Numbered from the stretch's first letter, positions 12,881-34,300 are shown. The stretch: DNA of 43,070 nucleotides from a virus (IMGVR_UViG_3300032274_000015:1-43070); one strand, 5' to 3'. Numbers and translations: made by a program. The notes: generated by a model not told the origin, from the letters alone.

Positions 12881-13180
12881 TTACTGCTCCAAAACCTTTA
12901 ATATTCTTAACCCCTTCACATTCAGTGAGTTAGCTACTATATGAGTGTAGACTTTAAAATAAACGCATTAATTAAATAAATTTTAGGGTCTCTGAGATGC
13001 CCTCATGGCATCCCTAAGATAATACTTTAATGCACATTAGTTGCGTTATGCTAATACCAAAAATACCCTCAATAATCTCCATGGGTCTCACCCGAACCCT
13101 GATTCACGCGGAAAATAATTAAACAACCCTGCGGATAACCTACGCTTTTTCGTGCGCCGACCCACCCCTTTTTGACCCTC

Positions 13181-13299
13181 TGCACCCTGTGCATGTTGCG
13201 ACTGGGAAGAGAATACTTGAACTCATTTGTCAGTATGGGATATTTACAAGGTGTGTATTTGCACCCTGTGCATGTTGCGACTGGGAAGAGAATACTTGA
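13181..13299. repeat. Exact 40-bp direct repeat pair
   Basis: TGCACCCTGTGCATGTTGCGACTGGGAAGAGAATACTTGA at 13181-13220 and 13260-13299, separated by 39 nt. Confidence 0.95.
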
Positions 13300-13387
13300 C
13301 TCTGTACCTTGTGATTTGAAACCCCTCGTTTCTTTTTACTAGCTTACTCCAGTTGTGAAATGGTTATGCACCCTGTGATTTGAACCC

Positions 13388-13618
13388 CTAACCGCTCATT
13401 TCCTTCTCTCGCTTCTTTTTGAGGTAGTATTCGCGGTGGTACGCCCGCTCACGTTCTGCGTATTCTGGGTCCTCCAATTTTCTCCTTTTCCGTTCCTCGA
13501 GGATCTCCTCGCGCTTCTTCCAGTATCGGTCCTTTTGATACCTCAATCGCTTGATTCTGTTCTTGTCGTAATACTTTCGCTTGTACGCGAGCACTTTTGC
13601 TGGGGTCTTCTTGGCCAT
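13388..13618 (-). CDS. Small highly basic (K/R/Y-rich) helical protein, probably from a leaderless mRNA
   Basis: 76 aa ORF with a promoter immediately upstream. Confidence 0.65.
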   Translation of the reverse strand: MAKKTPAKVLAYKRKYYDKNRIKRLRYQKDRYWKKREEILEERKRRKLEDPEYAERERAYHREYYLKKKREKEMSG

Positions 13619-13623
13619 GCCCT

Positions 13624-13652
13624 ATGCTACCCTATATGCCAAAAAACGTCAA
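13624..13652 (-). promoter_or_regulatory. Sigma70-type promoter, leaderless transcript
   Basis: TTGACG-17 nt-TAGCAT, then 5 nt to ATG 13618. Confidence 0.7.
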
Positions 13653-13900
13653 ATTTTTTCGTGTAACCCCCTATATAATATTAAACTACGCGTGAAAAAC
13701 CCAACCCCCACCCGTGGCGTGCACCCTGATTCCTGCACCATTTACCCTTTTTCCTGCTAAATGGAGGGTGTTAGAGTGTTCAAGGGAACAGGAAACAGGG
13801 TTCACCTCGCGCGCGCGTTCTATTCCCCGCGCGACATTTTAAAGATATGGCTGTTGCGTCGAGAGCTTCCCCCCATTGGAGGATGAAGGCGATCAACCGA

Positions 13901-13919
13901 TTTAATCGCCAATTAAACC
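13901..13919 (+). repeat. Cassette-boundary element, core-only copy 0
   Basis: TTTAAT-CGCCA-ATTAAACC identical to the core of the seven full copies, but lacking the outer arms and hairpin 2. Confidence 0.8.
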
Positions 13920-13936
13920 AAAACCAAAAAAAGAAA

Positions 13937-14428
13937 ATGAAAACAGAAAACAAAGTAAATGAAGTTACCACATTGATTCAATCCGTTATCGAACTCGACA
14001 ACCAGATTGTAGACATTGAGAATAGAGTTAATGATATTGCTCTGGAAATGAGTAAAATAGTGACGGGCTTAACATGGAGAGACATCAAACCTATCATCCT
14101 AGGAGCGGGTGAGGAAATAGCGGCTTGGTATAGCGGCTTGCAATTTAAATTGCTTGCTCGATTTGTAGCGGCATCCTTTGCCGATACAGAGGAAGGCGGG
14201 AAGTTTGCCCGCGACACTGCCAAGCTCCTTTGCGAGTCACTGTTCGGCGAATACACGGCAAGTCACCGCGCCGCGCTAAGTAAGAACTTGTCCGAGGGGC
14301 AAAAAGCTAAGCGTGCTGGTGGGCGGAAAAAAGGTAAGAAGCAGGTTGATTTGCTCGCCGCCGCCGTCAAAGCGTTTGAAGCCTTGACTCCTGCCGACAA
14401 GGCGAAGTTCCTCAAGGGGCTGAAGTAA
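13937..14428 (+). CDS. Early hypothetical protein (cassette 1)
   Basis: Start ATG 13937 after an A-rich leader; coiled-coil N-terminus and basic C-terminus. Confidence 0.75.
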   Translation: MKTENKVNEVTTLIQSVIELDNQIVDIENRVNDIALEMSKIVTGLTWRDIKPIILGAGEEIAAWYSGLQFKLLARFVAASFADTEEGGKFARDTAKLLCESLFGEYTASHRAALSKNLSEGQKAKRAGGRKKGKKQVDLLAAAVKAFEALTPADKAKFLKGLK

Positions 14429-14538
14429 ACATCACATACACAACCTATCGGTTTAATCGCCAATTAAACCGATAGGTTGCAATGTGCTGTTTGATATTCT
14501 GTCAAGCAACGCAAAACAAAAACAAAAGCAATAAAACA
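14429..14538 (+). repeat. Cassette-boundary double-hairpin element, copy 1
   Basis: Perfect 17-bp IR CAACCTATCGGTTTAAT-cgcca-ATTAAACCGATAGGTTG (14441-14479), then hairpin 2 and an A-rich leader. Confidence 0.95.
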
Positions 14539-14805
14539 ATGAAAACAATAGAAAAAACAATTAATCACCCTTCGCTGGGTGAGACGGAAATTCAAATTTT
14601 CGGCGATGACACCGCCGAGATAGTAGGACATTGTGTCCTAAACCCCATGTTAGGGGTTCATCCCGTCGAGTTTTTCGAGCCGAGCACAAGGCTTAAAAAG
14701 CTCCGCATTAAATATGCGGGAAAAAGCTGGGAGACATTCCAGCGAGCATCGGCACCCGCTAGGCGGAAGCTGGGGCTTGTGCGGAAATACCGCAAGCTCC
14801 CATAA
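14539..14805 (+). CDS. Early hypothetical protein (cassette 2)
   Basis: Start ATG 14539 right after the element's leader; stop abuts the next element. Confidence 0.7.
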   Translation: MKTIEKTINHPSLGETEIQIFGDDTAEIVGHCVLNPMLGVHPVEFFEPSTRLKKLRIKYAGKSWETFQRASAPARRKLGLVRKYRKLP

Positions 14806-14876
14806 CCCCTCATACTCAGCCCATCGGTTTAATCGCCAATTAAACCGATGGGTTCAACGCAAAACAAAAAAAAACA
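14806..14876 (+). repeat. Cassette-boundary element, copy 2 (hairpin 2 deleted)
   Basis: AGCCCATCGGTTTAAT-cgcca-ATTAAACCGATGGGTT joined directly to the CAACGCAAAAC leader. Confidence 0.95.
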
Positions 14877-15293
14877 ATGAACATACAAATTAATCATGGG
14901 CTTGGGCTTGAATACCTAGCCCACCACGAGGTGCGCACCAAGTCCCACAAGGGGATATGCGTATCTGCCTGCCTCGCAAAGCTAGGCATCCACCCTTCGC
15001 AGTATCAGTCCACGTGGACTGTGCGGAGCAAAGCCAACGCAACTTACGGCGTCCTCCGCCGTCACGGGTTCGCAGTCCGTTCCCGCAAGTCCAGCATCCC
15101 CAAGGGTGCTACGGTTGGGGGCATCCGCACCAGCATCCGCAAGATGCAAGACCCACCTGCATCCTGTTACCTGATTCATGTATCAGGACACATGCTTCTC
15201 CTCTCCAACACGGGGGAGACCATCATTGACACTGCCCCTCGCAAAAGAGACCGCCGCAAGGTGCTTGACATCAAAGCGGTGTGGCCTAAGTAA
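14877..15293 (+). CDS. Early protein, possible papain-like (C39-type) peptidase fold (cassette 3)
   Basis: Cys at a helix start (GICVSACLAKLG) and His in a beta motif (YLIHVSGHMLLL...IIDT). Confidence 0.5.
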   Translation: MNIQINHGLGLEYLAHHEVRTKSHKGICVSACLAKLGIHPSQYQSTWTVRSKANATYGVLRRHGFAVRSRKSSIPKGATVGGIRTSIRKMQDPPASCYLIHVSGHMLLLSNTGETIIDTAPRKRDRRKVLDIKAVWPK

Positions 15294-15398
15294 ACATCAC
15301 ATACTCAGCCCGTCGGTTTAATCGCCAATTAAACCGATGGGTTGCCATGTGCTGTTTGATATTCTGTCAAGCAACACGTAAACAAAAACAATAAAACA
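15294..15398 (+). repeat. Cassette-boundary element, copy 3
   Basis: Hairpin 1 at 15306-15344; left arm CCCGTCGG, right arm CCGATGGG. Confidence 0.95.
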
Positions 15399-16025
15399 AT
15401 GAAACCAAACCAAACCAAAACCAATAACAACACTACCATGGAACCAAATAAAAACTACAAGACCTACGTCGTCACTGTTGAGATTCGATCAGGAGACTAC
15501 GAGAAACATAACAGTAAGCTAGTCCATGCCCCCGACTCAGAAACCGCGTGGCACTATGCCTGTTACGCTGAGTCGCACAACCCCGACAAACTCCAATGGA
15601 ACAGAGACTCTTGGGACAAACACCAATGGTGTAATGAACCCGACTGGTCATTTGCCTATCGAGTTGGCGGGGTTGAGGAAGTGCCGGCCGATGAAGTGCC
15701 TGCGCTACGTAAGCACCTCAGCTACATGGTGTATGACGAAGCCGATCTCGCTAAGTCGGGAGACTACCTAGAAGAAATGATCCAATCCGACCACAACAAC
15801 GAAGTGCAACACACCGCCAAGACAGCGATCATCCGCTTGTCTGAACCCAGAACCTTGGACATCCTCATAGATTCCTTCGGAGACTCTGGATACATGAACA
15901 TCCACGGCACGGACATCATCATTGATACTGTCCATGTGGATGAAGACCCCAGCACCCTGCTGGAAATTACAGGCTTAGACCCCGCCATCCTTGATGCACA
16001 TGATTACCTTGTGTTCTATGTCTAA
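15399..16025 (+). CDS. Early hypothetical acidic protein (cassette 4)
   Basis: 208 aa ORF starting directly after the element (alternative start at 15438). Confidence 0.75.
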   Translation: MKPNQTKTNNNTTMEPNKNYKTYVVTVEIRSGDYEKHNSKLVHAPDSETAWHYACYAESHNPDKLQWNRDSWDKHQWCNEPDWSFAYRVGGVEEVPADEVPALRKHLSYMVYDEADLAKSGDYLEEMIQSDHNNEVQHTAKTAIIRLSEPRTLDILIDSFGDSGYMNIHGTDIIIDTVHVDEDPSTLLEITGLDPAILDAHDYLVFYV

Positions 16026-16080
16026 CCCTACCTAATCCAATCCGAACTACCAAACTAAAACCAAAAAACAAAACAAGACA

Positions 16081-16272
16081 ATGATAAACGCTACAATAAT
16101 AATCTTCACCACCGCGATCTTTATCGGGGTCATGATGGTGAACCTCTTCACCCTGAACCCCGAATCCTTCACCTTTAATCGTTGGTGTTGGATCGTGATT
16201 CGGGATTCATTCACGGCGGTATTCATCCTTGCGATGGTGTATGCCATATTTGTTATGGTGCTTGCATTCTAA
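16081..16272 (+). CDS. Small two-TM membrane protein
   Basis: 63 aa, two hydrophobic segments, A-rich leader. Confidence 0.55.
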   Translation: MINATIIIFTTAIFIGVMMVNLFTLNPESFTFNRWCWIVIRDSFTAVFILAMVYAIFVMVLAF

Positions 16273-16284
16273 ATTCATAACGTC

Positions 16285-16542
16285 ATGGAATGTATCATCA
16301 CAACTCTCCGCAAAGGTAACTTCACCAGTGGAGTTATCTTTGAATCCTCAACCCGCACCTTGATTCCCGATTCATTGGACATGATCCTCGAATCAGGGAA
16401 CATGAACGGGGATCAGCCCCGCCTAATATTTGTCAATTCAAACTTGACATTGGTAATCCGCCCCCTAAACCAAGGGGGAGACATGGGAAATAATAATAAT
16501 ACCCACCATAAAGGGGAGTGGTTCAAAGTCACTCCCGTATAA
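16285..16542 (+). CDS. Hypothetical protein (uncertain)
   Basis: 85 aa ORF whose stop abuts element copy 4; it lacks the typical A-rich leader. Confidence 0.35.
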   Translation: MECIITTLRKGNFTSGVIFESSTRTLIPDSLDMILESGNMNGDQPRLIFVNSNLTLVIRPLNQGGDMGNNNNTHHKGEWFKVTPV

Positions 16543-16656
16543 TAATAAACCCCACATACTCAGCCCGTCGGTTTAATCGCCAATTAAACCGACGGGTTGC
16601 CATGTGGTGTTTGATATTCTTTCAAGCAACACGTAAACAAAAACTAATAAACTACA
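16543..16656 (+). repeat. Cassette-boundary element, copy 4
   Basis: Hairpin 1 at 16561-16599, hairpin 2 at 16604-16632. Confidence 0.95.
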
Positions 16657-16980
16657 ATGAAAAAACTAAGTGAAGTATATAAGGAAATGGGAATTGCATT
16701 TACATTTCCAATCGAGATCAAAGATGAAGCGGGTCACGTGACATACTACGAAACCAGCGACGGCTACTGGCATAAGTTTGAGTATGACTCTGATGGTAAT
16801 GGGACATACTACGAAAACAGCGACAGCTACTGGCGCAAGAGTGAGTATGACTCTGATGGTAACGAGACATACTACGAAACCAGCGACGGCTACAAGACAG
16901 GAACACCGCGAGCATCCAAGACCTGCGAGGGTAAGGTCGTCGAGGTTGACGGTGTGAAGTATCAACTGAAGTCCTTATAA
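16657..16980 (+). CDS. Beta-hairpin repeat protein (TYYExSxGYWxKxEYDxxGN), paralogue A
   Basis: 107 aa with about 2.5 internal 21-aa repeats. Confidence 0.85.
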   Translation: MKKLSEVYKEMGIAFTFPIEIKDEAGHVTYYETSDGYWHKFEYDSDGNGTYYENSDSYWRKSEYDSDGNETYYETSDGYKTGTPRASKTCEGKVVEVDGVKYQLKSL

Positions 16981-17094
16981 TAATAAACCCCACATCCACA
17001 GCCCGTCGGTTTAATCGCCAATTAAATCGGCGGGTTGCAATGTGGTGTTTGATATTCTTTCAAGCAACACGTAAACAAAAACTAATAAACTACA
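16981..17094 (+). repeat. Cassette-boundary element, copy 5
   Basis: Hairpin 1 at 16999-17037; right arm ATTAAATCGGCGGGTTG carries two extra G-T wobbles. Confidence 0.95.
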
Positions 17095-17418
17095 ATGAAA
17101 AAACTAAGTGAAGTATATAAGGAAATGAGAGTTGCATTTACATTCCCAATCGAGATCAGAGATGAAGCGGGTCACGTGACATACTACGAAACCAGCGACG
17201 GCTACTGGCATAAGTTTGAGTATGACTCTGATGGTAATGGGACATACTACGAAGACAGCCGAGGCTACTGGCATAAGCGTGAGTATGACTCAGCAGGTAA
17301 CGAGACATACCACGAAAACAACGACGGATACAAGACGGGAACACCGCGAGCATCCAAGACCTGCGAAGGCAAGGTCGTCGAGGTTGACGGTGTGAAGTAT
17401 CAACTGAAGTCCTTATAA
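17095..17418 (+). CDS. Beta-hairpin repeat protein, paralogue B
   Basis: 107 aa; 12 substitutions relative to paralogue A by manual alignment. Confidence 0.85.
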   Translation: MKKLSEVYKEMRVAFTFPIEIRDEAGHVTYYETSDGYWHKFEYDSDGNGTYYEDSRGYWHKREYDSAGNETYHENNDGYKTGTPRASKTCEGKVVEVDGVKYQLKSL

Positions 17419-17544
17419 TAATAAACCCCACATACTCAGCCCGTCGGTTTAATCGCCAATTAAACCGACGGGTTGCCATGTGGTGTTTGATATTCTTTCA
17501 AGCACTACTCGCCAAGACATTTGGCAAACAACACAAAAAGTAAA
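17419..17544 (+). repeat. Cassette-boundary element, copy 6
   Basis: Hairpin 1 at 17437-17475; hairpin 2 GTGGTGTTTGA/TCAAGCACTAC at 17480-17508. Confidence 0.95.
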
Positions 17545-18909
17545 ATGAAAACAGAAAAAGAAACAGAGATGGTTGTGGATTACCTCGGTAATTCACAAGA
17601 AGAAAACGACTGCTACCGAATCACCCACGGTCACGCCAAGGGTGAGTGGGGGCATAAGGATGACGTAGAACACGCCACCCACCGTGATGGGGACGATGTA
17701 GTCTATGTAGACGATGACATAGGTGACCTCGTGTGGGATCACAACGGCGAACTCATCGAAGCCGATGATGCCGAGACCACCCACCTTGATGGGGACGTAG
17801 CCCACCGTGACGATTGCGTCCCAGTGGAAACCTACTACGATGGGGTAGTGGGGTACGAACTCGACGGTCACCACCAACTCGTAGAAATATACGACGACGC
17901 TTCCCGATACGCGTTGGACGATGATTGTGTATGGGTGGAGTCAAGGAGTATCTACGTCTTCACCGAGGATGATGATTACCAGTACCACGAAGGGCACGAA
18001 GAGTATTACCACGAGGATGACTACCCCCGTGCTGACGGCGAGGACGACAGGATAAACGAATACCACTGCTCCCCTGATGTGGCGGTGTATCAGAACCACC
18101 CGATGATGTGGTTCGGGGGGAAATACCTCCCCAACCCTGAATACCACAAAGTGTTCGACAGTTACACGATAGGCTTCGAGGTTGAGAAGAACAGCGTCGA
18201 TGGGTGCTACGATGAGGGTGACCCCGTTGATGAGCAACCGCTCTTCGCAGGGTGGGAGACGGACTCGTCATGTGGTGTCGAAGGCATTACTAATGCTTAC
18301 TCCCTCAATATGGGGGGGCGGCTGAAGAGTGATATTGACCGATCACCGCTCGTCAACTCGCCAACCGACGGGAGTTGCGGGGGGCATGTCAATGTCCGCG
18401 GTGAAGGGTTAACTATAGAAGCGATCCGTCCCTACGTGGGACTGATATACGCCCTATACCGAGGTCGCCTTACAAACGGCTTCTGTGCGGGCAACATACG
18501 CCTTGACGTGGGGGCGGGGTCGACCTACCCCGCCATAAAAAACAAGGGGGGTGGGATGATAGAGTTCCGCGTAGTATCGCGGGTCACTAATGGTGTTACC
18601 TTATGGCGGCGGTTCTTACTGTTCAAGGAAATCATGTGGTGTGTTCATCACAAGTTGTCCTTCAACGGTTTGATGAGACGCACACGGAAGATCCTACGCA
18701 CCATGTATCCTGATCCCTGCAAGCGAGCCATGATCCGTGATCTGGCTTACAAGTTCCAGCGATACGTGGAACTACGTGAACTACACTTAGACATCGCAGA
18801 GTGGGTCGCCGATGGCGGTGCCACACTCGTAGCAGGGGAGAGAAACACACCTGTAACAACACAAGAAACAACACAAGAAACAACACAAGAAACAACATTA
18901 TGTGCTTAA
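17545..18909 (+). CDS. Putative amidoligase (glutamine-synthetase-like COOH-NH2 ligase family) with an acidic N-terminal region
   Basis: Motifs IGFEVE, WETDSSCGVEG, SCGGHVNV and IEFR; start ATG 17545. Confidence 0.75.
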   Translation: MKTEKETEMVVDYLGNSQEENDCYRITHGHAKGEWGHKDDVEHATHRDGDDVVYVDDDIGDLVWDHNGELIEADDAETTHLDGDVAHRDDCVPVETYYDGVVGYELDGHHQLVEIYDDASRYALDDDCVWVESRSIYVFTEDDDYQYHEGHEEYYHEDDYPRADGEDDRINEYHCSPDVAVYQNHPMMWFGGKYLPNPEYHKVFDSYTIGFEVEKNSVDGCYDEGDPVDEQPLFAGWETDSSCGVEGITNAYSLNMGGRLKSDIDRSPLVNSPTDGSCGGHVNVRGEGLTIEAIRPYVGLIYALYRGRLTNGFCAGNIRLDVGAGSTYPAIKNKGGGMIEFRVVSRVTNGVTLWRRFLLFKEIMWCVHHKLSFNGLMRRTRKILRTMYPDPCKRAMIRDLAYKFQRYVELRELHLDIAEWVADGGATLVAGERNTPVTTQETTQETTQETTLCA

Positions 18910-20378
18910 TTATATACAAACCAAAAGCAAACCAGACAATACCACAGAAGTACATCGACAACGCCATGCTCATCAATCAAGATGGGTTTGGGATCACGTT
19001 CCTCGATGATGGAGAGACAATCAAAACGGCTGACTACCAGCGTGCTGAGAGTCTACTCCACATGCCACGGCCATATGTAGCACACTTCAGGTATGCTACA
19101 CAGGGTGCAATCAACGAAGAGAACATGCACCCCGCTCCCTTCTCTAAGGGATGGCTGTTCTCGAATGGTACTGTCCCCACCTTAGGGACTAAGAAAAAGT
19201 CTGACACCCGCGTGGTGGCAGAATACCTAGAGGACACACCAGAGAAACATTGGGCTAAACTACTGTCAATGACTGACACTAGGTTCGCCGTGGTCTCCCA
19301 CAACCTACGGGTTAGGCGATACGGTAAGTGGCACAAACGTAAAGGTGTCTACTACTCCAAGGACAATTGCTTCCGCACGTCCTATGCTCAGTATGGGTAT
19401 GGTTCAAGCAAGCAATACCCATGTGGGTTCGACGTTGTTGATGATGGTGAGGAGGACGCGGATTACTTCGGTAGGCACGGCTGGTATGACAATACGGGAA
19501 CGTATTGGAAATACACCGATGAGGATCAGTCTCTGCGGGACTCCCTACTAGACGGGGATTCCATGGATGAGTTCCTAGATAGGAATGACTACCCCTACGA
19601 AAATGCAATCGATGATACGTCTGCATCACAGAAGGCACTAACTGTGGAAGATCCTGACCTTCGGATGGATGATAGACAATTGCTCCAGTTCAATGAGGAG
19701 TTTAAGTATGAGCCCGCGCTCAACCTAAATGACACCGAGTTGATCGACATGATTGATCAACTCGAAACCGTCCACCTCAACAAACCTCTATCGCCTGATG
19801 CCACAGACGCGTTGGAAGAGTATTACACCGAGCTAGACAGGCGAACGAGCCTGTGTGGTTACGATGTGTATGATGCCAATTCAGCACCATCAAGGAGTGG
19901 TAGAGTGGATGAGTATGATGAGTATGATGAGTATGATGACTACATCACTTCCCCTGCTAATGAGAGCCTACCCTCAAACAATGAATTGGTTGCGGTGTAT
20001 GGAACTCTAAAGAATGGGCAAGGTAATCATTACCATCATCTCGGTGGGGATAAGTCTAGCTTCGTAGGTAGTGGGAGGACTGCACAGAAACTCCGCATGG
20101 CGGACTTCGGCATCCCCTATGTCTACGAGGGGGAGCATAAGGACGGACACAACCTAGTGGTGGATGTATTCAAACCATCGAGTGGTAAGACGTGGGCGGG
20201 GCTGGACTGCCTTGAGGGAGTTCCCACCCATTACCACCGAAAGGAGACAACCATCATCCTCGACTCAGGTGAGGAAGTCACGGCGTGGATGTACTACGCA
20301 TCGCACCAACCTGACAAGGGGGTGGATTGGATTGACAACTACAAGGGCTTAGGTTCGAGAGGGGCTTTTAAATTATAG
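18900..20378 (+). CDS. Class II glutamine amidotransferase fused to a gamma-glutamylcyclotransferase (AIG2-like) domain
   Basis: Start ATG 18900 gives M-C-LIIYKP (Ntn Cys); also HFRYATQG, MHP, SNG and SDT. C-terminal VAVYGTLKNGQGNH...LDCLEG...AWMY is the GGCT signature. Confidence 0.85.
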   Translation: MCLIIYKPKANQTIPQKYIDNAMLINQDGFGITFLDDGETIKTADYQRAESLLHMPRPYVAHFRYATQGAINEENMHPAPFSKGWLFSNGTVPTLGTKKKSDTRVVAEYLEDTPEKHWAKLLSMTDTRFAVVSHNLRVRRYGKWHKRKGVYYSKDNCFRTSYAQYGYGSSKQYPCGFDVVDDGEEDADYFGRHGWYDNTGTYWKYTDEDQSLRDSLLDGDSMDEFLDRNDYPYENAIDDTSASQKALTVEDPDLRMDDRQLLQFNEEFKYEPALNLNDTELIDMIDQLETVHLNKPLSPDATDALEEYYTELDRRTSLCGYDVYDANSAPSRSGRVDEYDEYDEYDDYITSPANESLPSNNELVAVYGTLKNGQGNHYHHLGGDKSSFVGSGRTAQKLRMADFGIPYVYEGEHKDGHNLVVDVFKPSSGKTWAGLDCLEGVPTHYHRKETTIILDSGEEVTAWMYYASHQPDKGVDWIDNYKGLGSRGAFKL

Positions 20379-20405
20379 CACCTCAACCCAACGCCTAGCA
20401 TAACT

Positions 20406-20514
20406 AAACCCCACATACTCAGCCCGTCGGTTTAATCGCCAATTAAATCGGCGGGTTGCAATGTGGTGTTTGATATTCTTTCAAGCAACACAAAACAAAA
20501 ACTAATAAACTACA
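20406..20514 (+). repeat. Cassette-boundary element, copy 7
   Basis: Hairpin 1 at 20420-20458; right arm identical to that of copy 5. Confidence 0.95.
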
Positions 20515-21321
20515 ATGAAAAAACCAACACCAGAAGAGATACTAAAAGTCGCTTCGTTTGATTATGACGAAGAAGGAAAGCTGATACTAAAACGGCTGGA
20601 TACTGACATAGTGGGTACCCACATCGGCGACCACTACGGCGACCACGAAGGCAACCACATCGGCAAGCACATCGGCAAGCACAAGGGCAACCACATTGGC
20701 AAGCACATTGGCGACCACGAAGGCAACCACTACGGCGACCACCACGGCAAGCACATTGGCGACCACGACGGCGACCACGTCGGCGACCACGACGGCGACC
20801 ACTTCGGCGACCACATCGGCGACCACGAAGGCTACCACGAAGGCGACCACTTCGGTTGCCACATCGGCAAGCACAAGGGCAACCACATCGGCAAGCACAA
20901 GGGCGACCACCACGGCAAGCACATTGGCGACCACGACGGCGACCACGTCGGCGACCACGACGGCGACCACATCGGCGACCACGAAGGCTACCACAAGGGC
21001 AACCACAGAGGCAACCACGTCGGCGACCACGACGGCGACCACGAAGGCGACCACGAAGGCAACCACTACGGCTACCACAACGGCACCCACATTGGCGACC
21101 ACGAAGGCAAGCACATCGGCGACCACGAAGGCGACCACGAAGGCGACCACTTCGGTTGCCACATCGGCTACCACAAGGGCAACCACAGAGGCAACCACTT
21201 CGGCGACCACTACGGCAACCACGAAGGCGATCACTTCGGCAACCACTACGGCTACCACAACGGCACCCACATTGGCGACCACATAGGTGACCACAACGGC
21301 GAACAGAAAACAGCACAATAA
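20515..21321 (+). CDS. His-rich (G-x-H-x)57 tetrapeptide repeat protein
   Basis: 33-aa head followed by 57 GxHx units from 12-bp GGCnnnCACnnn repeats; this frame has the conserved leader AATAAACTACA-ATG. Confidence 0.85.
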   Translation: MKKPTPEEILKVASFDYDEEGKLILKRLDTDIVGTHIGDHYGDHEGNHIGKHIGKHKGNHIGKHIGDHEGNHYGDHHGKHIGDHDGDHVGDHDGDHFGDHIGDHEGYHEGDHFGCHIGKHKGNHIGKHKGDHHGKHIGDHDGDHVGDHDGDHIGDHEGYHKGNHRGNHVGDHDGDHEGDHEGNHYGYHNGTHIGDHEGKHIGDHEGDHEGDHFGCHIGYHKGNHRGNHFGDHYGNHEGDHFGNHYGYHNGTHIGDHIGDHNGEQKTAQ

Positions 21322-21327
21322 ACTACA

Positions 21328-21693
21328 ATGAAAAAACCAACACTAGAAGAGATACTAAAAGTCGCTTCATTTGATTATGATGAAAAAGGAAAGCTGGTGC
21401 AGACCAGATTAGATGCTGACCTAATCGGCTCCCACAAGGGCAACCACTACGGCGACCACTACGGCGACCACTTCGGCTACCACGAAGGCAACCACATTGG
21501 CTACCACGACGGCGACCACTTCGGCGACCACATTGGCAAGCACATTGGCGACCACGAAGGCAACCACTACGGCGACCACCACGGCAAGCACATCGGCAAG
21601 CACATCGGCGACCACATCAGCTACCACATCGGCGACCACATCGGCGACCGCATCACACCAAAACCAGAAAAAACAGCACAAAACAAAAACTAA
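21328..21693 (+). CDS. Shorter paralogous (G-x-H-x)n repeat protein (about 19 units)
   Basis: Same MKKPTxEEILKVASFDYDExGKL head and the same leader. Confidence 0.85.
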   Translation: MKKPTLEEILKVASFDYDEKGKLVQTRLDADLIGSHKGNHYGDHYGDHFGYHEGNHIGYHDGDHFGDHIGKHIGDHEGNHYGDHHGKHIGKHIGDHISYHIGDHIGDRITPKPEKTAQNKN

Positions 21694-21702
21694 TAAACTA
21701 CA

Positions 21703-23283
21703 ATGAACAAAACAAAAACAACAGAAAAAATGACAGAACAAGAAACTACATTAGCGGACTTTGAATTACATGCATCCAGCAGAGAGAAGCTCGACCTCCC
21801 TGAGCATTTGGAGGACATTCTTTTAGTAAGTTGCACAAGAGCAGACTTCGAGAGCCTAGTACCAACTGGCGTCGGTAGGGCTATCATCCTACACCCATCC
21901 ATAGGTGGGTGTTTGAGCTTTGCAATCCTCATCCGAGACAGGGAGTGGATATACCCCGATCTCGCTAGCATCCGTCCAGTATCTGAGAGATGGGGCGCGG
22001 TCGGTCAGCGTATTCTTGTGGATGATACTGCTGATGAACAGCTATGGCTCCGCAGGGGTGGGAGTGATGAATATTTCTGCTATCAGAGCCCTGATGATCC
22101 CCTGACTTATATACCAACAGAGGACTGTGCGCCTATACAGGTGGCGGAGGGGAGGGTTGATTCAGTATCTGGATATGTAAGGTATGGTGATGAGCTCTTG
22201 TCGGTAAGAGACTGTGTCTATGTGGACTCTGGCGTATGCCCTATATTTAAAGCTATAAGGCTAGCCCCCTATTATGGGGATTTCAGATTTGTTGACCCAG
22301 ACGTAAGTTATGTCACGGAGCATGAGCGGGGGTGGTACTTTGTATATGACATGAGACGGATCGAGCCACGTGGTGGCACCCCATTCTATTCCGCTCCAGA
22401 TGAGGGGGGTTATTATCACTGTGACATTAGGGGGTGGATTCCTGAGGATGAAGCCCTGCTTGATATGGAGGGATACATCCATGAGTATCATTCTTCCCCA
22501 CCACCTAAAATGTATTTCCCGCAACTTGTGAGTAGGCTAGGTGTGGGGTTAGGTGAGGCTACATTTAGCAACCAACGCGGGCGATCCGCCTTATGGAAAT
22601 ATGGATTGGGATTTGAAATCGAAAAGAATTACGCCGTATGTCCTGATACGGGAGAGTATTTGAATAAATGCGGGGATGTGCTCCCCTCTGAACCACTCTT
22701 CGCAGGGTGGGAGACGGACTCGTCATGTGGCATAGAGGGGATTACTCATGTCTACTCTATTATGAACTTCGATCAGTTCAAGGATGATGTAGGTAACAGC
22801 CCCCTCGTAGACCTACCATCCAATTTATCTTGTGGGGGTCACGTTAATCTGAGTGGGCCTAATGTCACCTTAGCAACGGTAAGGAATTACGCAGGTCTGT
22901 TCTACGCCCTCTATCGTGGTAGGCTAGACAACCATAACTCCAATAAAAATAAACGTATCAACCCATCATATGAGGAGCATGATCACGAGGATAGGTATGC
23001 CTGTATTCGATCCAAACGGAACGGGGTTGTCGAGTTCAGGTTAGTGTCCCGTGTCCAGACACGAGCCCAACTAATTAATCGGTTCCGATTATTTCGGGAG
23101 TTGTGTTACGCGATGCACTACCGTAAGACATTTGGGGACTTTGTTAATGATAGTGAGCTAATCATATTGGATATGTATCGGGGGAGTTCATCGTCTGTTG
23201 ATCACATCCGCAGGCTCGCTGTTGATTTCCAACAGTGGCTAGACACAGGGGTAGGAATGAGTAGCATATCAAAGTACTTGTAA
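21703..23283 (+). CDS. Second putative amidoligase (COOH-NH2 ligase family) with an unrelated N-terminal region
   Basis: LGFEIE, WETDSSCGIEG, SCGGHVNL and VEFR; C-terminal half is paralogous to 17545..18909. Confidence 0.75.
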   Translation: MNKTKTTEKMTEQETTLADFELHASSREKLDLPEHLEDILLVSCTRADFESLVPTGVGRAIILHPSIGGCLSFAILIRDREWIYPDLASIRPVSERWGAVGQRILVDDTADEQLWLRRGGSDEYFCYQSPDDPLTYIPTEDCAPIQVAEGRVDSVSGYVRYGDELLSVRDCVYVDSGVCPIFKAIRLAPYYGDFRFVDPDVSYVTEHERGWYFVYDMRRIEPRGGTPFYSAPDEGGYYHCDIRGWIPEDEALLDMEGYIHEYHSSPPPKMYFPQLVSRLGVGLGEATFSNQRGRSALWKYGLGFEIEKNYAVCPDTGEYLNKCGDVLPSEPLFAGWETDSSCGIEGITHVYSIMNFDQFKDDVGNSPLVDLPSNLSCGGHVNLSGPNVTLATVRNYAGLFYALYRGRLDNHNSNKNKRINPSYEEHDHEDRYACIRSKRNGVVEFRLVSRVQTRAQLINRFRLFRELCYAMHYRKTFGDFVNDSELIILDMYRGSSSSVDHIRRLAVDFQQWLDTGVGMSSISKYL

Positions 23284-25259: not shown

Positions 25260-25305
25260 AAGGACCCTTAATCCACCTTAATTGGTGGGTTAAGGGTCCT
25301 TTTTT
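25260..25305 (+). terminator. Rho-independent terminator between convergent blocks
   Basis: AAGGACCCTTAATCCACC-ttaatt-GGTGGGTTAAGGGTCCTT followed by TTTT. Confidence 0.85.
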
Positions 25306-25309
25306 GCGT

Positions 25310-28300
25310 TTACGGATTAAGCTCAATCTGGCGTGGTAGCTTCGCCCTCTCTTCAAAGATGACCCTACCTCGCTCGATGATACCTTCCTCTTGAAGTCGC
25401 CTTGCCTTCTGCGGGCTGATCATCGGGACATCCATTACACCATTCATAATGTTCTGCACCCGTCGTTTCCCGAACCCTGCTTTGACCATAGTGTGATACA
25501 TTTCTTTCTTGCTGACGCCGAGTTTCTCGAAGCCCCCCATCTTACGTAACAGATCTTCACTGATTATCTTATTATCTTTGATACCTTTTAGATACAATTC
25601 ACGGATGGACTCCTCCGACATAGGCTTCTTATTAAATATTTTGAACTGCCTTTTATTAGCGCGGCTAAACTCACCCTTCTTCTGGAATAAGAAGTTTCGG
25701 AATTGCTTGCCCGCGTCGATCGTGTGTGGCTTCAGGGGTCGGAATGCGGTTAATACAATGCCAGCGGATGTATCCTCGAATTTCTCCGCCTCTATACTTT
25801 GTGCATCATATATTGCCTCACCCCGTTTCCAGAAGTCAGGTTTGTAGGCTTCTTTAAATACATGGCCCATAACCTTCCCCGCTATATCACCAACGGAATC
25901 AGTGGTTTCTTCATATATTGGGTCACCCGTTGTGGGGTCTTCATTGTTCGAGATAGATAGGAGCGAGCCTGCTAAGATCTGGTCGTCAAATAATATGTCT
26001 GCCACCAATCCTTCGGCAACACCCACCGTGGCATCACTGAAGTCGCCCCGAACCATGGAATTGAAACCCCGTAAAAATGGATCAACTATCATTGCATACG
26101 GGTTAATGTACGTGAAGTCATAGGAGGTTAGCTCCCCCTCTTTGTCTCGTAAGTAGAAGAAGGTATGCCCACGTAGATAATCAGGTATGGACGCCCTGAG
26201 AGCCTCCTCCTCATCATCACCTATATCGGCTATCATTGCGACCACGGCGGGTAACACCGTTGACCACCCTGCCATCACAGTCAATAAACCTGTCATACGA
26301 GAACGTCCTCGGGATCGCATAACAGAGTTGCCAGATCTTATCTCCTCAAGGGCTAACTTAACTGTGTTAATTGGGATCCGTATTACCTCCGTTCTGAATC
26401 GAAGGAACGGGGCGAACATTAAGGTGGCACCTGACTTCGTCATCTGTTGCACGATGGGCATCACTTGGTCGGCAGACTGCGAAGTCATACGTACTTTCCG
26501 CGCCGCTTCCATCTTCAAGACGCGGTCTGACAACTCAAAGTAACGGTCCCCTTCAACCGCCTCCTCACGTGCTCTTTCTAGGTGGGATACCTCGTGCTCA
26601 AAGTATGCTATCTTATAGAAGGCGTCTACCGCAGATGCCATCTCCGCCGCTTTTTTATAGGCCGCTTCTGCTGTTTGCCCCGCCACTTTTTTGGCTTTAT
26701 CAGTTCCCCGCTCTATCGCTTCTGCCTTAGCAGTTAGGTCATCAACCTGACGTTGTAGGGAATGAACATCGGACGTGCCGTTGAAGAGTTCCATCATAAC
26801 CTTAGATTGTATCTCAGCACCTACAACTCCCAAACCGTATAACTCTGAAAGATACCCATCAACTTTATTAGGGTTGACTGCGACTTGTGTTATGTGCTTT
26901 GCCGCGGATTTGAACATCTTGTCCATCCTCCAGAACCCCTGCGAAGGTCCGAAGAAAAGTATGTTGGAGAGTATGTTACGGACGTAGAACCCTGCGGATC
27001 CTAAAGTTTTTGTTGCCATAGCCGCACCTGTTGATCTATGGGCTAATTTTACGATGCTATGAGCCACGTGACCCGCTGTCGTATCAGAGAACTGAGACAG
27101 GTTCTGTTTGGAAGTCATCTGGCGGAACGAATCGACCATATCTTTTGGGGCCCAAAGACCATGCAGGGGATCCTCGGCGCCTAGGTCAGACTGGCGAACA
27201 GGCTCCCACTCGCTATACTTCTGGTAATTCTCGTCACTTATAGCCTTAGCTTCCTCAAGCTCCTGCGCGGTGAGTAGGAATTTATCCTCAAGGGTTGCCC
27301 CCTTCTGGTGGGTGGCAGTGCCGATGACTCTCACACGCTCAAGGAATGTCTGAGTGGCGGTCATCGTGTTCACAGTAGCGAACGTCCTTAGTAGGTTGTC
27401 TAATCCTTGGTCATCATTCTTACCTAGAATGTTTTGCAGTTCCTCAGGTAGGTCATGACGCTTTCTCCGTAAGTTGTTCATCGCCAGCTTATATCCCGTG
27501 GACCTGTTACCTAGGGCAACTTCACTATCTTGTGAGTAAGAATAAATGAAATCCATAAGTGCGTTGTAACCTAGTTTTGGATTACTACGTAGCTCGTGAC
27601 GGGCTTGGGCTAACGCCTCCGAGGATGACATCTCCTCATCTTTGAGTAGGGATTCCACCCTAGCTTCGACAAACTGACGCTCAAACAAATCAATCGCTTG
27701 GTCTCGCATTTCTACATAGTCGCCTTTACCTTGTTTGATGCCGTCCAAGGTTCTCTGATAATGTCCAGACTCTGTAAACATCTTATATGTTCTGGTGATG
27801 TAGATCCCGAGTTGGTTATCAATCCTTGCTCCGAGTTGATCTGATACTTGATGTGTATCCCTAACCCGCTTGGATAGGGTATCAATAATGTCCACCCGCA
27901 GTGTGCGTATGAGCTCTGCTAACTTCGGTGAAGCCTGCCTAATTTGATCCATGGCGAGTTCTTGCTTAACTCGGATCGCGTCAGCGGCGGCTGACTCCGC
28001 ATCCGATCTCTTAGAATTATGGCGGGCGTAAATCAACGCGAGGGAAGACTCCCTTTCTTCTGTGGTAAGATCCTTCTCGGCGTTTAGTAGTTGGATGGCG
28101 TCTTGACGATCTTTCTCGAGGTTGTCGTAAACATCCTGATCTAATACAGCCCCTACGCTACTACCTATCGCTTCATTAAATAACTCAGTTGGGGCGGCCT
28201 CGAGTGACCCATATGCCTTTTTAACTTCCTTATTAAATGACACGCTGAAGTCCTTGAGAATCTTTTCCCCCCAACGCTGTGTGTCTTGGAAAAGGTCATA

Positions 28301-31300
28301 AAGACGTGTCAACCGTGGATCTGCATCACCTTGGAACAGGCTCGCAAATTTCTTGGGTGCGGCATAAGGTCCTGCGTGCATGAGTGGAACCTCAAATATT
28401 TGTGGTATGTAAGAGAAATCCAGTGAGGACTCCCCTGCAATATCCGCTGATCCCCCTACGCTGGAGGCAGAGTATTTTGGTCCAACGTCATACCCCATTT
28501 CTTTGGCTACATCTATGCTAATTTTTTCCCCCATGATAGCCTCGAGTAACACGAGGTTTGCTTCAGGGTTATTAGGGTCGAACGCCACCCCGTTGGGGCC
28601 TTGGCGGTACCCTGATTTAACTTGGCGGAGCTCCATGATAAGTCTATTGACTTTGCTATCAATGTTGGTAGTTCTGCCACTTAACTTATATCTCTCGATA
28701 AGTGAGACCATCACCCCTCGGACATACCTGAAAATGACACTTGTCAGAGATGGGTTACTTTTGAGGAACTGAACATCTTGCTCAGTAGTAAACCCTTTCA
28801 TGGCTTTATTAGCCCTCATGCGTAGATACTCTTCCACCATGGAATAAGTTTCTACTGCCACGACATCTGGGTCCTCGGAACGGAGCCGCTCCTTCGCACT
28901 ATTGCGTAGTTCATCAGTCTGGTAATAATCCTCTGCAACTTTTGATAGCCCCTCAACACCTAAGGCTTTACCAACCTGCATGATTTCCTGTTCCGTTAGG
29001 ACATTGTAACTTGCGTAGTGGGCTAGCTCCTCATCTAGGATTGAGAGCATTGTAATGTTGGAGTTTGTCTGGGACATGCCACTAACTACACCCGTCATTC
29101 TAGTAGGGTTAAGATATATAACCCCGCCTTTGAAGGCCATTGAGGAATCAAGTCCCCAATCAACTTGGAAGTTGACCTCGGGAGGTGTATAGGATCTCAA
29201 GAACACTATGACCCCCTCTAGCTGATCTTGGAGCTCTGTAGCGTCTAAGTTTCGCATTCCGCTAGGTAGCAAGTGTGGGCTATTAACAAGCTGTTCAACC
29301 ACGGATTGTATGTTGCGCTCCATGTCTGCCCCCATCTCGGAAGATACACTCATGCTTTCCTCTAAAACGTCTAGCCCGAGTTCTAGTTGGGTTGACCCAA
29401 TGACTTCTATCGGGGACTTAATGTTGGTTTGGGCACCTTCCCCCTTGTGAAACTCGATGTCTTTGGCATTGGAGTTTGCGTCATCAATGCTTTCGGATAA
29501 CGATTGCTCAACAGTACCTCTACTTCCTTTCATGTCTGACCGTGTTAGGTCTACGATGTCATTCAACGCGGCGGTGTATTGTGATACCTCCTTCGGGGTT
29601 ATCTTCCCGTTGGTGATCTTACGGAACATGGTGACAATCGCTTCGATAATACGTGACATCAACCCTCGCTGTTTCGCAGGGGTCTCAACTGATTTTAAGA
29701 ATGATTGGAATGTTGGGTTAAGTAAAAAGTTAGCAACGAACTCATCGACATTTTCAAACCCTAGCTTAACTGTTTCAAACTGGGTGTCACGGCTGACGAA
29801 CTCGGCCTTAGCTATTTTCATTAACCCTTTGAGCCTGTTCCTAGCCATCGCCTGAGCTTTAGTTAGTGAGCCCTCAGGTCTAGCCAAGATATCAGACGTG
29901 AACGCATGTATATATTCCTCAAGGAGGACGTTAACTAAACCGCGACCATTCGAGCCTGCAAGGTTAAGTGTCACGTTATGCTCTCCGTCTGCGGTCTTTT
30001 CATATAACCCAGCTACTGCCGTAGTGGAATCTACGATGTGGAAATTTACAGTTGAGATAAACTCCGAGTCCTCGAGTAATAGATCCGCTACCAATTGGTG
30101 GTTCTCGTTTTCATCTGATTTTCTGATCTCTTCTAGTGCCGATATGACCGAAGAGGGATCCCCTGACTCAAGTGCGAGTTGGGAAACTACCTCTCCGTTT
30201 TCTTTACGGGCGGCTTCACGAGAAGCATCCGTGTCTGCTATTGAAGTTGACTTCCTCTGTCTGATCACTGCGGCGAGTCCATTGAGGATAGTCTTTGCTT
30301 CCTGCACCGTGTATGATGAATCCCGAAGCTCTAAGTCATTCAGCGGCTTGATCATCGACTTTGCAAACTCGTCACTAACCTCAGTTGGGAACACAATAAA
30401 TTTCAATGCCTCCCGCAGGTCTACTCCAGATTCCAGCTTTCCTAGACGCAGGTTCCTCAGGAACCCGAGGATTTCTGGTTCATGTTCATACGTGGCGCCG
30501 TCAATGGTTCCAGCTAATGAGTCCCATGCGGTTGCTACATTCATGTTGTCGTAGGACTTTTGGATCACGCCATTGTTCCGATCAACCGTACGTCTCAACA
30601 TATCAATAAACGCCTTTCGGGCGGTCGGGTCTGTTTCGATGTGGCTAATCACCCTTTCACGGGCGTTTTTGTAGAGGGAGTCGCGGAGCTCTATGGCAAT
30701 GTCAGCCACCTCCCTTAGATCTTTTACATCCTCGGGGTGGTATGACTCGAGGGTCGCCCTGTCGAGGGCTTCTGCAATAGCATTCTCGTCCTCTTCGACA
30801 GTGAGCGGGGTAGCCTCAACGGGGACTCCCTTAAATGGATCACGCCTCCTGCGACCAGTAGTTTGCATTTTATCTCCTACCTCTGTGTCTTGGTAGGCTT
30901 GGAGGAACGCTTGGAGTTCCTCTTCAGTTTCAAACGCGTCCATGCTCACCTCGGCGGGGGCGCCCTTTATTTCAAGGAGACGTTGTGCCTGATACCGATC
31001 CTTGATTCGTTTAGCGATCGTCGCCATCGAGGGCATATTGCCCAAGAGTAAGGATTCATGATTCAGGATGTGGGATTCAATATAGGTAACGATAGTTCCA
31101 TAGTGCATCTCTTGTTTCTCAGAGTTGCTCATCCCTTTGTTGGATCTGTTATCTACATCATAGTCTGAACCTTGGAGGTTCATGCGTTTACCTAAAAGAT
31201 GTGCCACCCTTCCAATATCGGGGCGGGAACCATCAGGTTGCTCAGTGTAGGTTAAGAATAATCGAGCGGCATGCTCCATCTTATCAGGGGCAATAGAAAA

Positions 31301-34300
31301 CACCCCGTCCCCATCCTGACTAACCATACCTTTTCTCTTAGTAATCTGGTTTCGTATCCCGTGGAGTTGGGCGGTTAAGGCATACTCCGCATGGAACGCC
31401 GCAACGGCAGTAGAGAAGTACTCGGGGGGTAAATGCAGAAGCTTCCCTTTCGGGTCATTCAACATCATGCTTAATTTACGTGCGGCTTTACTGGTGGTTT
31501 CTTGAGGTTCTGGGCGGGAGCGTCGGGAGTTTCTCTCCTCTATCTTCCCTAAGAGGTTTTCCAATCGTAGAATATCCTCCTGAAGTGATGTGATCTCTTC
31601 GCTTCTAGGGTTCATCCTCTGAGTGTCCTCAAGGTCTTGTTTGAGTCCCGATATCTCCGCTACGATCTTGGCTTCTTCGCGTGAGCGTTCCTCTCTCAGA
31701 TTACCTTCTGAAACTTGGTCCATCCCCACACTCAACTGTGTGTCGGGTCTCATACCCTCCATACCAGCTTTGATAAAGCCCTCGAAGTCACTAAGGAAAT
31801 CATTTAATGATGTAGTCTCTGGCTTACCACCTTTAATGGCGATATTCCCAGCATCTAAATCACCTGAAGTGTTAAATCTTTTTACCTTAGGAAGGGGTAG
31901 GGGGAGATCTTTGTTAAATATCCCGACGATGTTTGCCGTCAGATCACTATACGTGGTCGCAGGGGCTGTTCTTTGTTTCCTCCGTGGGGCTTGATAGGCT
32001 TCCGTATGTGTGCCATCTGCATTCATCACCCGAACAGCTTGGACAAATCCGTCTCGGTCGTATCTGATAGCGGGGTTAATCTGCTCTTTTCGGATATCCC
32101 CAACACCGCGTAGGATGTCGGCGGGTATCTTGATAGGGATGCCACTTAATAACATCTCACCGACTAGAACAGGGTCATTATTGAATACCCCACGTCCATC
32201 ACGGTCGATAGCCCCACGAATAACCTTGTGGGCGGTGGTCACGTTACCATCGCTATCTACTACAGCTTGTGAAACTTTTCTATTAGAAGTGAATGGTCTA
32301 TAGGATTTGTCTAACTTAACCTTCGGTTCAGGGCGGGGCGTATCTGCTACCCTTGCTTCAATCTCATCCGCTTTAGTTATTAGGGTCTTGGCGAGTTGGC
32401 CACCCCTCTTATCAGCTACTTTACGTAACTCCTCAGCGAGCTTCAATGCCTGCTTCTCAGTGTACTTTTTACCCTCAGGTTTTAGGAGATTGTTATTTAC
32501 GGATTGACGTTGGGAAGTGGTGAGCTTCTTAATAGTTATAAATGGCTCCCTGTCTGCGGCCCTCGAAGCTCTCTTCTCCGCGGATTTTAGGTCCTCAACG
32601 ATAAGACTTTCAACATCCCCAATGTCGAGATGGGGGTAAACCTCAATTATTTTTGCCGCGAGGTTTTGCCTGATGTAGGCTCGGTAACCTACGCCCTTCT
32701 CGAGCCCTAATATTTTACCGTAAGCCTCTGGACCTGATCCTTCAGATTGGGCATACATACCTCTCATTGCCTTAGCTTCAAATGTAACAGGGTAACCTAA
32801 CGCGACAAGGGCTCTAAACTGATCCATCTGATGACGTTGGATCATTTCTGCCGCCGTCGGTGCGGTAATGCCCTCGACTTTTGAGATGGGGGTGGCGGGA
32901 ACTTTTCCAGCTTTTACAGGTGGGAGATTCGGGGATGGCTTAGTCTCAAGGGGGAAAAGTTGCTTGAGTGCATTATCATCCAGAGCGAATGTGGCGAGCG
33001 GGGATCCCTCAACTTCAGGTAAATAGCCTATAAGGGTTTCGGGGGTCTCCTCCTGAGGTTGAATGCGTCCTATTGCTTTCACATTCTCCTCACGCTTAGT
33101 GCGGATCATCTCTTCGATCTCTTCCTCGGTTACATCCGAATTATCGAGTGCGCTTTGTGTGCGTGTGACTTCTTCATCTAGTAGTTGTTTCTTCAGGAGT
33201 TCCGCACGGCGTTGTGTTAACGTAGGTTCACCACGCTCTTTTAATAAACTCTGTGCGAGTTCCAACTGCTGGGCGGCGGGGCCGTCATATGGGTTAGAAA
33301 TTAGCTCGGCTTCTGCGGCTTCTTCCATAGCCCGCAAAGAACTTACGGGGGTGGTTTCATTGATGGAGTCCCCAAAAACAATATCACTCTCCACGGGGGC
33401 TACCACTACGGTGTTAGCTTGACTTACGTCTGGGGCACTCTGGCTGAGTTGTTCCATATCCAGAACAGACCCCGTGGGGTCCCCCATAAACCATAGGATC
33501 TCACCTTCAGTTTCTTGACCAACTACGACAGACCTCGCGGATACCACAACGTCGTTGGATTCCATTAGGCTACCAAAAAGATACTCCCCTTCGTCTATAC
33601 CTAACCCACTATATCTCGTAGCGGCCTCCGAGGGGCTGAGAACCTCGAGAACTTCTATCTGTGTCTCAACACCATCCTCCGTCAAAGCGAAGATGTCTCC
33701 TGATTGGATGGATTCAACATCAGTATCTGTGTCCTCCTCTGTTTCATCTTCCGTTTCATCTTCCGTTTCATCTTCAGAAACCGCAGGTTTTTTTCTCTTG
33801 GTGGATTTGGTTTTCTTCGGGTTCTTACCTGAGGGGCTGGAAGTAGCCCCACGGTCCGTGTTCCGAGTTACTTTTTCCTCAGGTGTAAACTCTGATTGTG
33901 GCGGGAACTCACCTAACTCTATACCTTCCCGAGCGGCTTTGGATCTCATCACTACCTGATAAAATTCATATTCAGTTGGTGACAGCTTGTGAATAGGTCT
34001 GCCTGCTGGGATACGATTTCCTTTGTGTGGGGTTACTGAGTACCTTGTTTTCCCATCTTTGGTTAACCCATCAATTGATAGGTCCTGCTCCATTACTTTA
34101 CGAGCCGCTTCATACTCGGTACGATGCTCTATAGAAAGGTCTTTGATTCTAGTCCCTCTTCGGATTAGTACCCCGTCCCCCATCTTCCTAGAGAACCCAG
34201 TGACTTCTTCTACAGAAGGTGCGTCCTCTTGGGCTTTTTCTGATAGGTCAGCTTCTTGTTTTTGAAGGGTTTCTTTAGCACTTAATACACGATTGGTAAT

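Follow-up and report, generated by a model that had tools for sequence, protein, structure and literature searches.

Why does one and the same hairpin element stand again and again between the early genes of a virus? The question is raised by IMGVR_UViG_3300032274_000015, a linear virus record of ~70% completeness, whose whole stretch of 43,070 nucleotides (nt) is called the window here. Its structural genes lie on the minus strand; the plus strand carries a region of small genes at 13.9-25.2 kb, and the element recurs in the first part of that region, from position 13901 to 20514. A sequence-only reading had taken the array for an integron-like system, in which the element supplied both expression signals and a recombination substrate. 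Comparison with related contigs shows that the array is real, dynamic and family-wide. We read the element as a repeated early-gene expression signal, with an outer stem acting as RNA, a core bound by protein, and neighbouring genes swapped by ordinary recombination; taken as a whole, this reading stands at about even chances. Its parts differ in strength: homology-driven shuffling is very likely, an RNA role of the outer stem is probable, and a core that a phage protein recognises as DNA is somewhat favoured.

A scan for the 17-bp core returned eight exact copies, where chance predicts 0.16; every one is on the plus strand, and no further core turned up elsewhere in the window with up to three mismatches allowed. 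The window covers part of its genome: locus L061, which matches it at 99.9-100%, lies in a contig of 59,549 bases of which the window is apparently the last 43,070, so that ~16.5 kb lies beyond its left end, and some 30% of the genome is outside the window searches. Seven of the eight cores sit inside hairpin-1 stems of 16-17 pairs, with fold z-scores of -6.3 to -8.1 relative to shuffled sequence. The eighth, at the head of the array, is the core alone, with a predicted RNA fold of 0.0 kcal/mol, and is kept in loci L003, L081 and L122. Core scan and folds thus bear out the original description of seven hairpin copies in one orientation behind a core-only head copy at 13901. Six copies are long and the one with its core at 14828 is short by 28 nt; short copies also recur in related contigs. 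A second hairpin, said to belong to every copy, is present in six of the seven, but not in the copy at 14828, where those 28 nt are missing. Hairpin 2 and the outer extension of hairpin 1 are mutually competing folds, and from its sequence a long copy can equally be drawn as one imperfect hairpin of ~70 nt. The long copies are 85-98% identical across 85 nt, and any pair of copies shares 21-91 bp of perfect identity. An Rfam search of the array gave no match at E up to 1.

The core pattern was found in one viral contig and at least 124 metagenome loci, from 51 of the 64 parts of the metagenome set. Most of these loci are single chance core matches; six array-bearing contigs besides the window's own stand among the matches listed. 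With a slash for the element and g0 for the first gene (gene 0), the window reads g0/A/B/C,D,E/F/F/Lig1,GAT/G,G,Lig2, and L003, which is 97% identical, reads g0/B/A/X,C,D,E/F/F/Lig1,GAT/F/Lig2. The order in L073 is g0/H/I/B/D,E/F/Lig1,GAT/C,F,F,Lig2, that in both L081 and L122 is g0/J/H/B, and L036 and L117-119 have F/F/ and F/F/F/Lig1. Shuffling is shown by these contigs, because genes are gained, lost, duplicated and reordered between copies of the element. An unchanged gene content and order among related phages, the outcome named beforehand as fatal to the cassette idea, was not seen; the arrays differ in genes and order, with duplications, and the element does bound mobile early-gene units. 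The accompanying picture of unrelated genes as discrete modules was too simple: two modules hold two to three genes, and the two 107-aa genes are paralogous.

Individual genes show how the units move. Gene B has the short 3' half of the element ahead of it in all five records, behind four upstream genes (A, gene 0, I and H). Gene C has moved on its own in L073, and in L003 the extra gene X sits before it. Lig2 has a full element upstream in L003, but in L073 and the window it follows a leader alone; G1 and G2 are not present in L003 and L073, an F cassette standing in their place in L003. Gene F, which in the window forms a 438-bp tandem duplication with the element included, is an accordion-like gene among strains, with two to three or more copies and a varying count of its 21-residue repeat (106-191 aa) in L003, L036, L073 and L117-119. 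Assembled contigs from four of the 20 listed sequencing runs were compared, of which run X12 shows the L003-type order and join, and run X8 other neighbours at the leaders. A backward joint in X12 (15391 to 14550) has the form that an excised A+B circle would give, but its inserted letters and depth agree with the L003 gene order. The His/Gly repeat genes at 20515-21693 have a 12-nt period, and their length is variable in run X8.

The identity of 21-91 bp between copies, together with 20-30 bp between leaders, would permit homology-based exchange, and such exchange could delete, duplicate and import genes with their signals kept intact. Several junctions lie in leaders that hold no core: the G1-G2 block, which has a 31-nt direct repeat of the leader at both flanks, the X-C junction, and in L073 those of C with F, F with F and F with Lig2. 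Nor does the 5' flank of the element go with the downstream gene: it tracks the upstream gene or the place in the array, which would not be expected if crossovers were fixed at the outer AAC.

The family to which the window belongs was followed through its portal-like protein, named from position and size without a family match, which has at least 723 relatives at E <1e-10, the best 120 being mostly 63-67% identical. Alignment of this protein retrieved 80 of 106 viral loci, many in 55-67-kb records. Upstream of the portal, at least three copies of a single palindrome occur in 20 of 56 loci from this family of ~60-kb phages, compared with one of 65 downstream control stretches. The test used perfect palindromes with 6-bp arms in loci with at least 5 kb upstream of the portal; among the 20 are the 97% relative, a pair of near-duplicates and a locus matched via a word other than its real core, and other arrays, such as those of L149 and L157, escape it. 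The core differs between lineages (ACTAGT-N4-ACTAGT, GGTATA-N6-TATACC, GGTTAAC-N4-GTTAACC, TAACAA-N5-TTGTTA, TAGTGC-N4/5-GCACTA and others), and in all four records checked whole it is confined to the early region and exclusive to its genome. In the early regions of L192, L194 and L200, some cores are doubled head to tail with one TTAA common to both. A different element occurs at 845-6064 of L136, the locus whose portal is closest to that of the window; it has a TGCAA...TGATATT...TCAA stretch in common with the distal half of the long window copies.

Stem and core appear to be read differently. On the transcribed strand, the outer stems of the 23 distinct window-group copies hold 31 G-T and no A-C pairs, and those of seven other lineages hold 28 G-T and 13 A-C pairs (p 0.03). 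The pair five bases outside the core is G-C in 14, G-T in 10, A-T in 9 and A-C in none of 33 copies (P 0.0024); as the copies share descent, both p values overstate independence. That G-T pairs are kept and A-C pairs avoided points to RNA structure of the outer stem, with the reservation that single-stranded DNA would yield the same G-T bias. A DNA site recognised by a symmetric protein suits the core better than an RNA loop does, because the core is kept at the array head, where it is unable to fold, and because in other lineages most copies have weak AT-rich arms of 6-8 bp with unrelated flanks. Folds there are weak accordingly: all 14 ACTAGT copies lie at -4.1 to -5.4 kcal/mol, and 33 of 40 TAACAA copies are weaker than -6. 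In four of eight lineages the commonest loop is also seen flipped, as expected of a symmetric DNA site.

If a protein reads the core, the first gene of the array is a candidate to encode it. Gene 0 is the first array gene in all five records covering it, and across lineages a helical gene of 160-240 aa lies directly behind the head copy; the exceptions are the ACTAGT lineage, whose first core is inside gene 0, and the f24 loci, where the gene is not first. For six of seven families, core type and gene-0 family match exactly across the 56 loci, and no core was found without its gene-0 family gene. L229, a record found by its gene-0 protein alone, has five matching cores. L172 and L213 have distant portals yet the same core and gene-0 family. 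Core and gene are both missing from five close portal kin of L155/L163, although L157 shares four of 18 early genes with L155 at 65-97%. These distances come from a quick portal tree (39 loci, first 620 residues, midpoint root) with several weak deep nodes. Two gene-0 families are homologous (hhalign 94%), and their cores are similar in length and different in sequence. Fold searches with gene 0 gave generic helical matches only (best Z 6.5 and 6.3), PDB sequence searches nothing, and a library of 1.8 billion five relatives, one of them likely a false match. In the model of family f42, a basic RLRGKR-DAG stretch, a motif that we take to resemble transposase linkers, comes after two short helices; a helix-turn-helix (HTH) is suggested there, not confirmed. 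Given these data, gene 0 is put forward as a candidate core-binding protein, a hypothesis of binding that we regard as possible rather than probable, and the head copy as its candidate autoregulatory operator.

Under the expression-signal reading, the first early gene would encode a dimeric regulator that binds the head copy, thereby regulating itself, and all downstream copies, so that any gene landing behind a copy would fall under phage control. The GC-rich outer stem may end or protect the transcript, and the long copies, which add an extended -10, may restart transcription. This extended -10 (TGATATTCT) occurs in six of the seven window elements, the long copies, and its form TGnTAnnnT arises 1.3-2 times per kb by itself; we treat it as a weak hint, from sequence, that the long copies are promoters. 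Among the relatives, which have host-type TTGAC promoters in the early region, 10 of 160 cores precede a full host-type promoter, and two relatives use a TGCTATTCT -10 that resembles the TGATATTCT of the window's long copies. An activator acting at a set spacing between core and -35 was considered and dropped, the core centres lying at a variable 15-41.5 nt upstream.

Integron attC sites have an R box, RYYYAAC, and an unpaired spacer and extrahelical bases between the R and L boxes. A dedicated site-specific cassette system, in which a phage or host recombinase acts on the palindrome or the ~70-nt hairpin in the manner of attC or lox/dif, would account for the cassette-like order changes and the G-T bias, which also fits single-stranded DNA; the core parses as 13-7-13, and the long copies as DNA form one imperfect hairpin closed by AAC/GTT, a loose outer pair found in 23 of 33 full copies. 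The enzyme could be coded in the unseen 30% of the genome or work in trans from the host, and phage-borne attC arrays exist, as far as the accessible text of PMC9892861 describes them. The complementary box, given there as GTTRRRY, and RYYYAAC were nevertheless found in none of the 33 full copies, both strands scanned, and the DNA folds of four long copies have a 1x1 mismatch and a 3x2 loop, with no attC-type unpaired spacer or extrahelical bases beside the AAC/GTT pair. Attachment sites in reverse orientation were ruled out by the flank listing and the R-box scan. The CGCCA loop, described as invariant and asymmetric, is so within the window but not among the 23 distinct copies of the window and six contigs, which have 19 CGCCA, one CACCA, one CGTCA and two flipped TGGCG. 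The flipped loops sit in elements whose flanks and genes keep their direction, and an assembly artefact is unlikely to explain these loops because the arms are shorter than usual assembly word lengths. With four of 23 loops variant or flipped and junctions in core-free leaders, there is no fixed asymmetric spacer of the lox/dif type. Short copies without the GTT arm still bound mobile genes, and other lineages have 6-8-bp arms only. The tyrosine recombinase family PF00589 is found in none of five records, three of them 98-100% complete; the 39 window proteins (~70% of the genome) gave no integron integrase match; and PF00239 and PF01797 (Y1 transposase) are found neither in the window nor in four records 95-100% complete, so no recombinase of the tyrosine, serine or Y1 kind was found in near-complete array-bearing relatives. 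The element is not an attC array, and we judge site-specific cassette exchange in general decidedly improbable. A further scheme is a family-wide, purpose-built cassette system without a classical recombinase, in which the gene-0 protein of each lineage would bind that lineage's palindrome and bring two copies together. This is improbable; if true, phage control and targeted exchange would be united in one site, with lineage-specific addresses for accessory genes.

Copies might be RNA punctuation only, processing or stability hairpins of one long early transcript in the manner of the T7 RNase III sites, their core kept uniform through mutual conversion and the shuffling a by-product. The 31:0 bias against A-C, 17-bp stems placed directly after stop codons, a loop that is free and flippable, and no promoter by consensus scan all suit this, yet the core alone survives at the array head without a fold, most copies in other lineages have only short AT-rich arms and unrelated flanks, nothing would oblige a host nuclease signal to differ in sequence from lineage to lineage, and core types co-occur with gene-0 families; we consider RNA punctuation alone rather unlikely. 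Phage N4 has hairpin promoters for a virion-carried RNA polymerase, and one hairpin ahead of each early unit, with a 3840-aa virion-type protein coded at 25310-36832 as the polymerase, recalls that arrangement. A pattern search of that protein showed no single-subunit polymerase motifs, however, and neither PDB nor Atlas (queried with residues 901-2200 only) gave a match; moreover, loops flip and the corresponding region of relatives has host-type TTGAC promoters, making this extremely improbable. Selfish or structural DNA, be it palindromes like the repetitive extragenic palindromic (REP) sequences spread in trans or sites pacing DNA entry, without a role in gene control, might be suspected from the tandem doubled cores of one lineage and from the short simple repeats that adjoin the arrays, possibly marking a genome end. 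Copies are nevertheless confined to the early region and nearly all lie between a stop codon and a leader, and no Y1 transposase was found, so that we rate it very improbable.

Several observations also weigh against the expression-signal reading itself. The window elements have no full sigma-70 promoter and no U-tailed terminator by consensus scan, the -10 motif is common, and the pairing statistics are discounted by shared descent. The commonest loop was never seen flipped in four of the eight lineages, and in the window group it is one-sided, 19 to 2. The co-occurrence of core and gene 0 is partly circular, the families having been taken from array-bearing loci, and is confounded by linkage; two of the four loci with an f24 gene have no f24 core, and L151, L157 and L162 share a CTCCCT-N5-AGGGAG hairpin element without a common first gene. 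Gene 0 has no Pfam, PHROG or fold match with either of two models (pLDDT 76 and 82), that of the window shows no significant relation to the f42/f57 family (E 0.13-0.15), and an Atlas link to a Streptomyces phage repressor family (0.76) is a lead only. No integrase was found in these phages, so that a repressor has no evident purpose. Of the annealing proteins, RecT and ERF, the two searched for, were found neither in the window nor in the four records 95-100% complete.

Among known systems, long hairpins stand between early genes at the RNase III sites of T7 and in the host-takeover module of SPO1, and phiC31 has inverted repeats in terminator-promoter units. The array resembles T7 and SPO1 in that its early genes are separated by long hairpins of the transcribed strand (16-17 pairs, G-T bias), and is unlike them in that the hairpins are near-identical repeats with a DNA-like conserved core, serving as exchange points. 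The promoter-stem-loop (PeSL) cassettes of T4-type phages have, in the accessible parts of their reports, a sigma-70 -35/-10 promoter, a Shine-Dalgarno sequence and proven mini-circles (PMC2839356, PMC4122927). As described there, they share with the array ~100-bp intergenic stem-loop repeats that run from stop to start codon beside variable genes of unknown function, and recombination between copies that gains and loses genes, here with some junctions in the leader only. The array differs from these accounts in having an extended -10 candidate only, A/C leaders, a lineage-specific palindromic core and changes of gene order, in a ~60-kb non-T4 phage known from contigs. The temperate phages phiC31 and L5 have proven repressors, and the stoperators of L5 are asymmetric and genome-wide, according to the available portions of PMC4557955 and PMC6550527. 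Compared with the repressor sites described in those portions, the element likewise has many copies per genome, one beside the gene of the candidate regulator, and a site sequence that diverges with the (here candidate) regulator between lineages, though here confounded by linkage; its sites are instead palindromic, restricted to the early region and set within RNA stems, the binding protein is a candidate, and no integrase is found in these phages. Resemblance to integron attC and CALIN arrays, within what the accessible text of PMC9892861 sets out, lies in imperfect palindromes between mobile genes and the outer AAC/GTT of long copies, and difference in the R boxes, unpaired spacer and integrase, all lacking here, and in core-free junctions; an integrase is not required for the CALIN class. 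On our best reading, the array works like a PeSL cassette built around a probable phage-protein operator.

Table 1. Features of the array and its genes in the window, with the core start and hairpin-1 span of each copy.
Feature	Position	Strand	Core start	Hairpin 1	Remarks
Head copy	13901-13917	+	13901		Core alone (17-bp palindrome), 19 nt upstream of gene 0
Gene 0	13937-14428	+			163 aa; all-helical basic protein
Element E1	14429-14538	+	14452	14441-14479	Long; TGATATTCT at 14492; A/C leader
Gene A	14539-14805	+			88 aa; without known function; placed after B in L003
Element E2	14806-14876	+	14828	14818-14854	Short (28-nt deletion)
Gene B	14877-15293	+			138 aa; without known function
Element E3	15294-15437	+	15317	15306-15344	Long
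Gene C	15438-16025	+			Alternative start 15399
Gene D	16081-16272	+
Gene E	16285-16542	+
Element E4	16543-16656	+	16572	16561-16599	Long
Gene F1	16657-16980	+			107 aa; 21-residue repeat protein
Element E5	16981-17094	+	17010	16999-17037	Long
Gene F2	17095-17418	+			Paralogue of F1
Element E6	17419-17544	+	17448	17437-17475	Long; extra small leader hairpin; loop flipped in L073 counterpart
Lig1	17545-18909	+			Amidoligase-like by motif only
GAT	18900-20378	+			Glutamine amidotransferase-like and gamma-glutamyl cyclotransferase gene
Element E7	20379-20514	+	20431	20420-20458	Long
Genes G1 and G2	20515-21702	+			His/Gly four-residue repeat proteins
Lig2	21703-23283	+			Paralogue of Lig1

Of the cargo genes, that at 18900-20378 matches GGACT (E 2e-16) and, weakly, GATase. 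A Pfam search with Lig1 gave no match; Lig1 and Lig2 have what we take to be an amidoligase-like motif set, and judged by sequence features, they and the adjoining amidotransferase-like/cyclotransferase gene form a possible peptide-modification module. Nine array proteins found no match in PADLOC, a result without bearing on counter-defence roles.

The setting of the array is that of an uncultured phage. An isolated phage relative was looked for with the terminase-like and capsid-like proteins and none matched, and single-protein scans of viral contigs gave only the 97% relative and one distant locus that ends before its array. One near-complete relative codes for polymerase A, a primase, a DUF2800 exonuclease and a RuvC-like resolvase; the window has a RuvC-like gene at 41323. 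An excisionase-like HTH gene at 40457, a weak match (E 0.003), is read from its position as a candidate small terminase. Portal relatives turned up in one Opitutae and one Acidimicrobiaceae assembly. A literature search that left most subscription papers and supplements uncovered found no paper on the element or the phage family. Between the divergent gene blocks, 13160-13730 holds a 40-nt direct repeat (13181, 13260) and four copies of TGCACCCTG; relatives carry simple repeats at the matching place, which is possibly near a genome end. At 25260-25301, a terminator-like hairpin of 18 pairs separates the plus-strand region from the convergent gene for the 3840-aa protein (minus strand). This protein has two EExxH zincin-like motifs (residues 2305 and 2601), relatives of 2764-4242 aa, and no match in Pfam or PHROG.

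These findings describe PeSL-style modular shuffling among strains, reordering and amplification included, within a marine phage family that is abundant, uncultured and not related to T4. Its palindromes, which differ by lineage, and the small family of unannotated first early genes that they match offer directly testable candidate regulator-operator pairs of differing specificity. If true, such pairs would explain how these phages bring new genes under their control without lysogeny genes.

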